IMG/VR virus record: IMGVR_UViG_2897328257_000001
Length of the DNA stretch: 23,636 bases
Origin: a virus
Lineage: Duplodnaviria > Heunggongvirae > Uroviricota > Caudoviricetes
Strand: one strand, 5' to 3'
In this document: piece by piece, positions 8,510 to 10,605 of the stretch
Layout: every line of letters starts with the position of its first letter
How positions within the stretch are numbered: position 1 is the first letter of the stretch
Translations under genes and position numbers: made by a program
The notes under the pieces: generated by a model
The model's input: only the letters and a program-made list of their open reading frames with translations
Database searches by the model: none
Told to the model about the DNA's origin: nothing

Positions 8510-9162
8510 TGAGTAATAAATATTGCCAGGCGCTGGTGGAACTGCGGAACAAACCAGCCCATGAACTGAAGGAAGTGGGCGATCAGTGGCGCACGCCGGA
8601 CAACATTTTCTGGGGAATTAACACCCTGTTTGGCCCGTTTGTTCTGGATCTGTTCACTGACGGTGATAACGCCAAATGTGCCGCGTATTACACGGCGGAA
8701 GACAACGCGCTGGCGCATGACTGGTCAGAACGTCTTGCGGAGCTTAAAGGTGCTGCCTTTGGTAATCCCCCATACAGCCGCGCCAGTCAGCATGAGGGGC
8801 AATACATCACCGGCATGCGTTACATCATGAAGCATGCCAGTGCCATGCGTGATAAAGGCGGGCGCTATGTTTTCCTGATTAAAGCTGCCACCAGCGAAGT
8901 GTGGTGGCCGGAAGATGCAGATCATATTGCTTTTATTCGCGGGCGTATTGGTTTTGAACTGCCTGTCTGGTTTATCCCGAAAGACGAGAAGCAGGTACCG
9001 ACAGGCGCTTTCTTCGCTGGTGCTATTGCTGTTTTCGACAAGACCTGGAAGGGACCGGCAATCAGCTACATCGGGCGCGATGAACTTGAGGCATGTGGTG
9101 AGGCCTTTCTGGCGCAGGTTCGCCAGCAGGCGGAAAAACTGGTCAGGGAGATGGCGGCATGA
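8509..9162 (+). CDS. Phage Dam-family N6-adenine DNA methyltransferase, 217 aa
   Basis: Catalytic NPPY motif (FGNPPYS) and overall resemblance to phage orphan N6-adenine methyltransferases; a new ORF begins at 9159 (MTTLTQCQQ...) and is cut by the assembly gap. Confidence 0.85.
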   Translation: MSNKYCQALVELRNKPAHELKEVGDQWRTPDNIFWGINTLFGPFVLDLFTDGDNAKCAAYYTAEDNALAHDWSERLAELKGAAFGNPPYSRASQHEGQYITGMRYIMKHASAMRDKGGRYVFLIKAATSEVWWPEDADHIAFIRGRIGFELPVWFIPKDEKQVPTGAFFAGAIAVFDKTWKGPAISYIGRDELEACGEAFLAQVRQQAEKLVREMAA

Positions 9163-9187
9163 CGACGTTAACTCAATGCCAGCAGCA

Positions 9188-9198
9188 NNNNNNNNNNN
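9188..9198. other. Assembly gap (11 N); unknown true length
   Basis: Run of n characters; flanked on the right by the IS left end, i.e. a typical repeat-induced contig break. Confidence 0.99.
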
Positions 9199-9262
9199 CA
9201 CACTAAATTTGGCCACCTGATGAAAGGTGATATTCTCACCACAACACAAAACAGGTGACTTA

Positions 9263-9574
9263 ATGAACAAGAAAACCAAACGAACCTTCACCCCTGAGTT
9301 CAGGCTGGAATGTGCACAGCTGATTGTTGATAAGGGCTACTCATATCGACAGGCCAGTGAAGCGATGAATGTCGGTTCAACCACGCTTGAGAGCTGGGTA
9401 CGCCAGCTCAGGCGAGAGCGCCAGGGTATTACGCCCTCTGCCACACCCATTACTCCAGACCAGCAACGTATCCGCGAGCTGGAAAAGCAAGTTCGCCGTC
9501 TGGAGGAACAAAATACGATATTAAAAAAGGCTACCGCGCTCTTAATGTCCGACTCGCTGAACGGTTCACGATAG
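9263..9574 (+). CDS. IS3-family transposase OrfA (HTH / leucine-zipper), 103 aa
   Basis: [23 protein letters not shown]... closely resembles IS911 OrfA; slippery heptamer AAAAAAG at 9523-9529 near its 3' end. Confidence 0.88.
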
Positions 9575-10440
9575 CCGCCAGACTAAGTGACAGCCACACG
9601 GTTGTCAGCCTGTGTTCTGCTCTGGAAATACACCGCAGCAGTTACCGGTACTGGCGAAAACGACGCGATACGGTTAATCCGGCACGAGTCAGGTTGTGCA
9701 GCGAAATACGCCGGGCGTGGAACCAAAGTCGGGGCTCTGCGGGCGCGCGCACTCTGGCTGAAATGCTGACTCAAAACGGCGTCCCGATGAGCCGTTACCG
9801 TGCCGGACGTCTGATGAAATATCTGAACCTGAGCAGTTGTCAGCCCGGAAAACATCAGTATAAAAATGCCCGTCAGGAGCATACCAGCCTGCCGAATCTG
9901 CTTGAGCGTCAGTTCGCAGTACCGGAGCCAGACCGGGTATGGTGTGGAGATATTACGTATCTCTGGGCAGGAAATCGCTGGTGCTATCTGGCGGTTGTTA
10001 TGGATCTTTTTGCCCGCAGGGTTATCGGCTGGAGTCTGTCAGCGCATGCCGATACCGCACTGATAAGCAGTGCCCTGCGGATGGCCTATGAGACGCGTGG
10101 CCAACCCCGGGATGTCGTGTTCCATAGCGACCAGGGAAGCCAGTATACAGGCCTTAAATATCAACAACTTCTCTGGCGTTGCAGAATAAATCAAAGCGTC
10201 AGTCGGCGGGGAAACTGCTGGGATAACAGCCCCATGGAACGCTTCTTCCGCAGTCTGAAAACAGAATGGGTGCCAACGAATGGTTACGCAGGCAAGGACG
10301 AGGCCCGGCAGCAAATTAATGATTACATATTGAACTACTACAACAGCGTCAGACCTCACCATTATAACGGTGGGCTGACGCCGGAAGAGTCAGAGAACAG
10401 ATACCATTTTTACTGTAAAACCGTGGCCAATATTACTTGA
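9526..10440 (+). CDS. IS3-family transposase OrfB (DDE catalytic domain), expressed as OrfAB fusion by -1 programmed frameshift; 5' coordinate approximate
   Basis: DDE motif context (WCGDITYL ... [10 protein letters not shown] ... [12 protein letters not shown]); frame is -1 relative to orfA after the A6G site. Confidence 0.82.
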
Positions 10441-10448
10441 CCACTACA

Positions 10449-10605
10449 GATGCAGAAAGCGGCAGGGCTTGCCGGAGGCGTCCGCTTTGGCCCGGACGTG
10501 AATGAAGTTATCCCCGTTTCCCCGGATGAGGCGGACATGACGGAGGATGACGTAATGCTGATGACAGTATCAGAAGGGATCGCAGGAGGAGTCCGGTATG
10601 GCTGA
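10449..10605 (+). pseudogene. T: 3' fragment of lambda-like tail assembly chaperone gene T (G-T), truncated by the IS insertion
   Basis: Frame ending ...MLMTVSEGIAGGVRYG* directly abuts the IS right end and overlaps the H start as in lambda; the 5' part of G/T is absent. Confidence 0.6.

Follow-up and report, generated by a model that had tools for sequence, protein, structure and literature searches.

An 11-N spacer beside an IS3-family element in a DLP12-site prophage of Escherichia coli strain 646 is probably a scaffolding join

Results

Genes and features on either side of the spacer

The window analysed here is a 23,636-nt stretch of DNA held in IMG/VR as a Caudoviricetes record (IMGVR_UViG_2897328257_000001). 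It corresponds to positions 577265-600900 of the GenBank record of E. coli strain 646 (CP023200.1), N run included, and sequence comparison of window positions 450-20605 with 577714-597869 of that record showed 0 mismatches and the same 11 N. Deliberate masking by the data provider was considered as a source of the N run and rejected, the same run being present in the GenBank-derived record. The start of the window falls exactly at the intD stop codon (1-1164 region) and looks like the boundary of a provirus prediction.

The features around the spacer are listed in Table 1. The left contig ends in a LexA-like gene that follows the Dam methyltransferase gene, and the right contig opens within an insertion sequence (IS) that is followed by the remnant of tail assembly gene T and by the tape measure gene H. 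A first-pass annotation of the window had placed the spacer against the left end of the IS, and this is borne out by the first base after the N run being nucleotide 9 of the element. It had also described the right end of the IS as interrupting T just upstream of H, and a gene starting at 9159 (MTTLTQCQQ) as cut by the gap; both descriptions agree with the features found. No Q, lysis, terminase, portal, capsid or V/G gene was found within the window.

Table 1 Features flanking the spacer in the window, and the genes that occupy the corresponding interval in closed relatives
Feature	Position	Strand	Remarks
Last 1.2 kb of left contig: end of HTH gene, PerC, Dam, start of LexA-like gene	7950-9187	+	Inter-prophage repeat
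Dam methyltransferase gene	8509-9162	+	
LexA-like gene, 5' stub	9159-9187	+	9 codons plus 2 nt; cut by contig end
11-N spacer between two contigs	9188-9198	.	Only N run in window; identical in CP023200.1
IS3-family insertion sequence	9199-10448	+	Nucleotides 9-1258 of 1,258; base-for-base identical to element in six closed genomes
IS OrfA	9263-9574	+	
A AAA AAG -1 frameshift motif in IS	9523-9529	+	
Stop of IS OrfB frame	10438-10440	+	
Right-hand GAT of 3-bp target-site duplication	10449-10451	+	Flanks in closed relatives ...gctGAT[IS]GATgca...
Tail assembly gene T, 3' remnant	10450-10605	+	51 codons; overlaps start of H
Tape measure gene H, intact	10598-13159	+	First gene of right contig after IS and T remnant
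Interval part 1, in order: rest of LexA-like gene (108 aa), RusA, KilA-N, DUF968, QuuD			Closed relatives
Interval part 2, in order: nmpC-type porin, essD, rrrD, rzpD, bor, ybcV, ybcW, ylcI			Closed relatives
Interval part 3: nohD, large terminase, head-tail joining protein, portal, S49 protease, decoration, major capsid			Closed relatives
Interval part 4, in order: FI, second head-tail joining protein, three tail proteins, G, 5' T			Closed relatives

The insertion sequence is an IS3-family element related to ISEc31

The left end of the IS and its left flank are concealed by the N run in the window, and the termini were read from closed relatives. There the element begins TGTAGTGGCACAC..., of which the first 8 nt (TGTAGTGG) are absent from the window and would lie within the N run, while the right terminal repeat ends ...CCACTACA, as it does at 10448 in the window. 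These termini (TGTAGTGG...CCACTACA) form imperfect inverted repeats with TG...CA ends, and the element is bordered by a 3-bp duplication, as is typical of the IS3 family.

The coding organisation places the element in the same family. Two overlapping frames are linked by an A6G-type motif, A AAA AAG, at which a predicted -1 shift would produce a fused OrfAB of 392 aa ending at 10440, and RefSeq annotates the transposase with a 'programmed frameshift'. OrfAB matched the NCBIfam model NF033516 'IS3 family transposase' at 360.6 bits (cut-off 160), and Pfam matches to HTH_Tnp_1, HTH_21, rve and rve_3 correspond to an N-terminal helix-turn-helix (HTH) region and a DDE (rve) catalytic core. The GenBank record starts the transposase at a GTG at 9227, within the IS left end (404 aa), and not at the ATG at 9263 (392 aa); this choice of start was not caused by the gap, since an unrelated draft carries the same call.

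The first-pass annotation had called the element IS911-like, a description that holds at the level of the IS3 family but not below it. By ISfinder convention, two copies are called the same IS at ~95% nucleotide identity. The closest named element was ISEc31, also of the IS3 family, which aligned over the full length with the same organisation at ~92-93% nucleotide identity, under that level, whereas IS911 showed ~65% nucleotide identity over ~74% of the element, far below the ~95% or more expected of an IS911 copy; the element is thus a relative of IS911, not IS911 itself. It shares with IS911 two overlapping frames, an A AAA AAG -1 motif, a 3-bp duplication and TG...CA ends. RefSeq names the product only 'IS3 family transposase'. 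The element occurs at 4 places in the closest closed relative, 2012EL-2448, and 938 records were matched at 99% identity or more.

The insertion in T is a simple insertion shared with closed relatives

Six closed RefSeq chromosomes of Shiga-toxin-producing E. coli, namely 2012EL-2448 (NZ_CP027586.1), 2015C-3121, 2018-166, S19-141, STEC2018-553 and STEC435, served as closed relatives. Window positions 9199-11400, covering the IS, the T remnant and a stretch of H, are present in all six at 100% identity, and the right-contig sequence from the IS into H is identical to the closed relatives up to 11817. The product of H matched the Pfam families TMP_2 (1.2e-69) and Tape_meas_lam_C (3.7e-21).

The target-site duplication that the first-pass annotation had proposed looking for is present in the closed relatives as a 3-bp GAT at both IS flanks. 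Within 2012EL-2448 the 1,258-bp element lies inside T. Removal of the IS and one GAT in silico restored an intact T reading frame. Because GAT lies on both sides and excision restores T, the closed relatives carry the IS as a simple insertion that duplicated 3 bp (GAT), and it does not mark the end of a deletion there.

The interrupted gene has the hallmarks of a lambda-type T: it encodes a Phage_tail_T domain, lies between G and H and is preceded by a slippery site where G ends, although the window contains its last 51 codons only. The domain (PF06223) was matched by the 5' T fragment in relatives, and the slippery site of the G-T frameshift, G GGA AAG (GGGAAAG), is located just upstream of the IS in 2012EL-2448. 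The G-T frameshift product is required for lambda tail assembly. Since the IS splits T and that product is needed, the element probably disrupts the T part of the G-T frameshift chaperone and leaves the prophage tail-defective across the lineage, gap or not. RefSeq lists the remnant as 'phage tail assembly protein T, incomplete, missing N-terminus', and 210 contigs have a record of the exact 51-aa product. In other draft assemblies, too, contigs start inside the IS and continue through the T remnant into H (ten such contigs). The insertion in T is a real, lineage-wide and biologically routine event, already annotated in RefSeq.

Closed relatives carry 18.4 kb where the window has 11 N

The left flank (window positions 6200-9187) was found in all six closed relatives, in the same prophage and on the same strand as the IS, and 18,415-18,432 nt upstream of the equivalent of position 9199. 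This prophage occupies the tRNA-Arg argU/intD site, which is the DLP12 site, and it has the integration site, gene order and IS-in-T insertion of the window; it differs from the window in having the 18,415-18,432 nt in place of the 11 N and a different allele at 8113-8997. The genes of the interval (Table 1, parts 1 to 4) run from the rest of the LexA-like gene to the 5' part of T. The first-pass annotation had reported the Q, lysis and head modules as missing, which is correct for the window but probably does not hold for the organism itself, the ~18.4 kb being kept in six of six relatives.

Outside the interval the correspondence is close. The early region differs from a closed relative by 25 mismatches in 9,187 nt, and the right part by 16 mismatches in 14.2 kb. 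Downstream of the window, CP023200.1 continues into ompT (omptin), an AraC-family regulator gene (envY) and nfrA-like genes.

One explanation for the junction, put forward in the first-pass annotation as a prophage rendered cryptic by an IS-mediated deletion, is that strain 646 really has lost ~18.4 kb and carries a prophage remnant without Q, lysis and head genes. The loss could have come about if a second IS copy had entered the LexA-like gene and recombined with the one inside T, or if the IS had generated an adjacent deletion. Prophages of Shiga-toxin-producing E. coli commonly decay through IS activity, and the window itself is compatible with such an event, in that the 11 N could stand for 3 flank bases and the 8 missing IS bases. 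If true, the deletion would fuse the early region to the IS and the genes from H to the tail fibre, and the remnant would keep a complete distal tail module. However, the 18.4 kb is kept in all six closed genomes with the identical insertion in T, which in these relatives is a simple one, and the two flanks were found together at one place in 0 of 5,426 complete genomes. Similarly, IMG/VR gave 0 matches to a pattern spanning the N run, and 0 to one that linked the LexA stub to the complete IS end across a variable gap. When the 51-aa T remnant was looked up by exact match, Dam adjoined the IS on a single contig, CP023200.1 itself, and the junction did not recur in an independent assembly. Nothing was found that specifically favours a deletion, and we regard it as unlikely.

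The genes of the interval were also sought among the protein records of CP023200.1. Records of the exact 83-aa 5' T fragment exist for 25 contigs, none of which is CP023200.1, as would be expected had the interval been deleted. This absence is weak evidence for deletion, since the same protein record is also missing from three of the six closed relatives, all of which bear the DNA. Nine of the ten interval proteins tried were each on record on at least 996 contigs; the tenth was a terminase allele unique to 2012EL-2448.

The left contig ends in a module repeated among prophages

The ORF opening at 9159 is the start of a 108-aa protein with a LexA DNA-binding domain (Pfam PF01726, 2.6e-19), the full gene of which is present in a closed relative. 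This gene belongs to a PerC-Dam-LexA-RusA module that occurs at 3 places per closed relative. Protein look-up placed Dam in ten other contexts, and in each it was followed by the LexA-like protein, RusA, KilA-N, DUF968 and an antiterminator. No base of the left contig derives from the IS, and the contig stops within this three-copy repeat, where short-read contigs break anyway, which is a further point against an IS-mediated deletion.

The paralogous PerC-Dam-LexA-RusA-KilA-N-DUF968-Q module of S19-141 is located directly upstream of stx1a (NZ_CP075640.1 234434-253521). CP023200.1 was a stx2 BLAST hit in another study, and strain 646 was reported to carry a stx2-like gene (PMC8625421). Because the S19-141 module adjoins stx1a and strain 646 has this stx2-like gene (PMC8625421), strain 646 probably holds several lambdoid prophages that share the PerC-to-Q module.

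Comparison of the copies showed that the end of the left contig does not carry the DLP12-site allele. Homology with the Stx1a-prophage copy in S19-141 starts near 7950 and continues beyond the break, and the window differs from that copy at 2 sites between 8100 and 9187 (8419 and 8437). By comparison, 23 SNPs, all within 8113-8997 (the PerC and Dam genes), separate the window from the DLP12-site copy found in the closest closed relatives. Over its final 1.1 kb the left contig therefore carries the allele of the Stx1a-prophage paralogue, and beyond the contig end the paralogues can next be told apart at 29 and 34 nt. The allele at 8113-8997 reflects either recombination between co-resident prophages or a chimeric contig end produced by assembly or merging.

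This allele raises the possibility that contigs from two prophages were misjoined, the early region coming from one and the tail genes from another, or that the left end is a chimera made during merging; contigs from two assemblers were indeed merged with CISA for this genome (PMC5814501). Against a wholesale misjoin, the left part starts with intD, the integrase of the argU site, and has 2 mismatches over its first 8.1 kb relative to the DLP12-site prophage of a relative, while the right part runs into ompT-envY-nfrA, the chromosomal flank of the same site. Both parts also belong to a single prophage in the relatives, with order and orientation unchanged. A join between different prophages, or a chimeric left end as the origin of the junction, is therefore very improbable.

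The source record is a reference-ordered short-read draft

Strain 646 was isolated from a neonatal calf in India and sequenced with Illumina NextSeq reads only; assembly with CLC and Edena followed by a CISA merge gave 179 contigs, which were ordered by Ragout 2.0 into one sequence of 5,320,632 bp (PMC5814501). CP023200.1 consists of Ragout-ordered short-read contigs, and therefore the junction at 9188-9198 has no read support and was inferred from other genomes. That the join comes from reference-guided ordering and not from reads (PMC5814501) also stands against reading it as a deletion. Since the genome report gives a single accession for strain 646, the unplaced contigs were not deposited (PMC5814501). 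The record is thus a reference-ordered one in which N runs mark joins, and no further N run was present in the 33 kb of CP023200.1 examined.

Gap sizes in Ragout are estimated from reference distances, and 11 N is probably its minimum gap length; a literature search found no statement of an 11-N minimum. A minimal gap might then be written where the references have no intervening DNA, or where the adjacency lacks reference support. In either case the length would not speak for a real junction, nor would it prove an artefact.

The spacer resembles what Ragout is known to produce. Gaps in Ragout scaffolds may separate neighbouring contigs that in reality have repetitive contigs between them, and in the tool's own E. 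coli benchmark 52 scaffold-adjacent contig pairs were truly separated by other contigs (PMC4058940). No difference in kind was apparent between such gaps and the junction in the window.

The junction is best explained as an artificial join across repeats

Short reads cannot bridge sequence of the kind found at the contig ends and in the interval, and Ragout omits such sequence. Repeats that short reads cannot span lie at both contig ends, the three-copy module on the left and the multi-copy IS on the right, and the interval is itself repeated, its 10.2-kb segment from nohD to T being present at 5 places in one of the six closed relatives and at 3 in each of the others.

The explanation most consistent with these data, to which we assign a probability of roughly 80%, is that Ragout artificially joined two short-read contigs of strain 646 at 9188-9198 and placed an 11-N spacer between them. 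The left contig would have ended in the PerC-Dam-LexA-like-RusA module, which is ~98-100% identical among co-resident lambdoid prophages. The right contig would have extended from unique tail genes back through the multi-copy IS3-family element and ended at the distal boundary of that element. The ~18.4-kb interval would most likely have been assembled into repetitive or collapsed contigs, and it would have been left out by the scaffolder because it is repeated among prophages. A scaffold join across a repeat had been the other option offered in the first-pass annotation, and it is strongly supported by the 179 Ragout-ordered contigs, the repeat-located contig ends and the six closed genomes.

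Under a scaffolding join, strain 646 probably has the same prophage as its relatives, with the IS in T and with the late region present but unplaced. The order and orientation of the two parts of the window are probably right, because the left part with intD and the right part on the ompT side share one site in the relatives; what lacks support is that nothing lies between them. The junction is most likely not a biological feature.

These results call for caution in the use of CP023200.1, which is a reference-ordered draft whose N runs conceal DNA of unknown amount. Gene absence at its N runs is not to be trusted. At such joins, calls of completeness, gene content or 'cryptic prophage' status will be wrong, whether they are made from the record itself or from provirus catalogues built on it.

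Other observations on the record

CP023200.1 bears a chromosome-style CP accession and has been used as a reference in later papers. A ter-type4 reference is given as 'CP0232000.1' (PMC11945584), which is CP023200.1 if the accession is a misprint.

The tail-fibre gene of the window (19690-23052) encodes a 1,120-aa product (ASZ40439.1) that is on record on a single contig, CP023200.1, and the gene contains a cluster of SNPs at 22355-22802 relative to a closed relative. The product could be a genuine variant, or else a consensus produced when tail-fibre paralogues collapsed. The name 'short-chain fatty acid transporter', under which one source lists it, is a mis-annotation.
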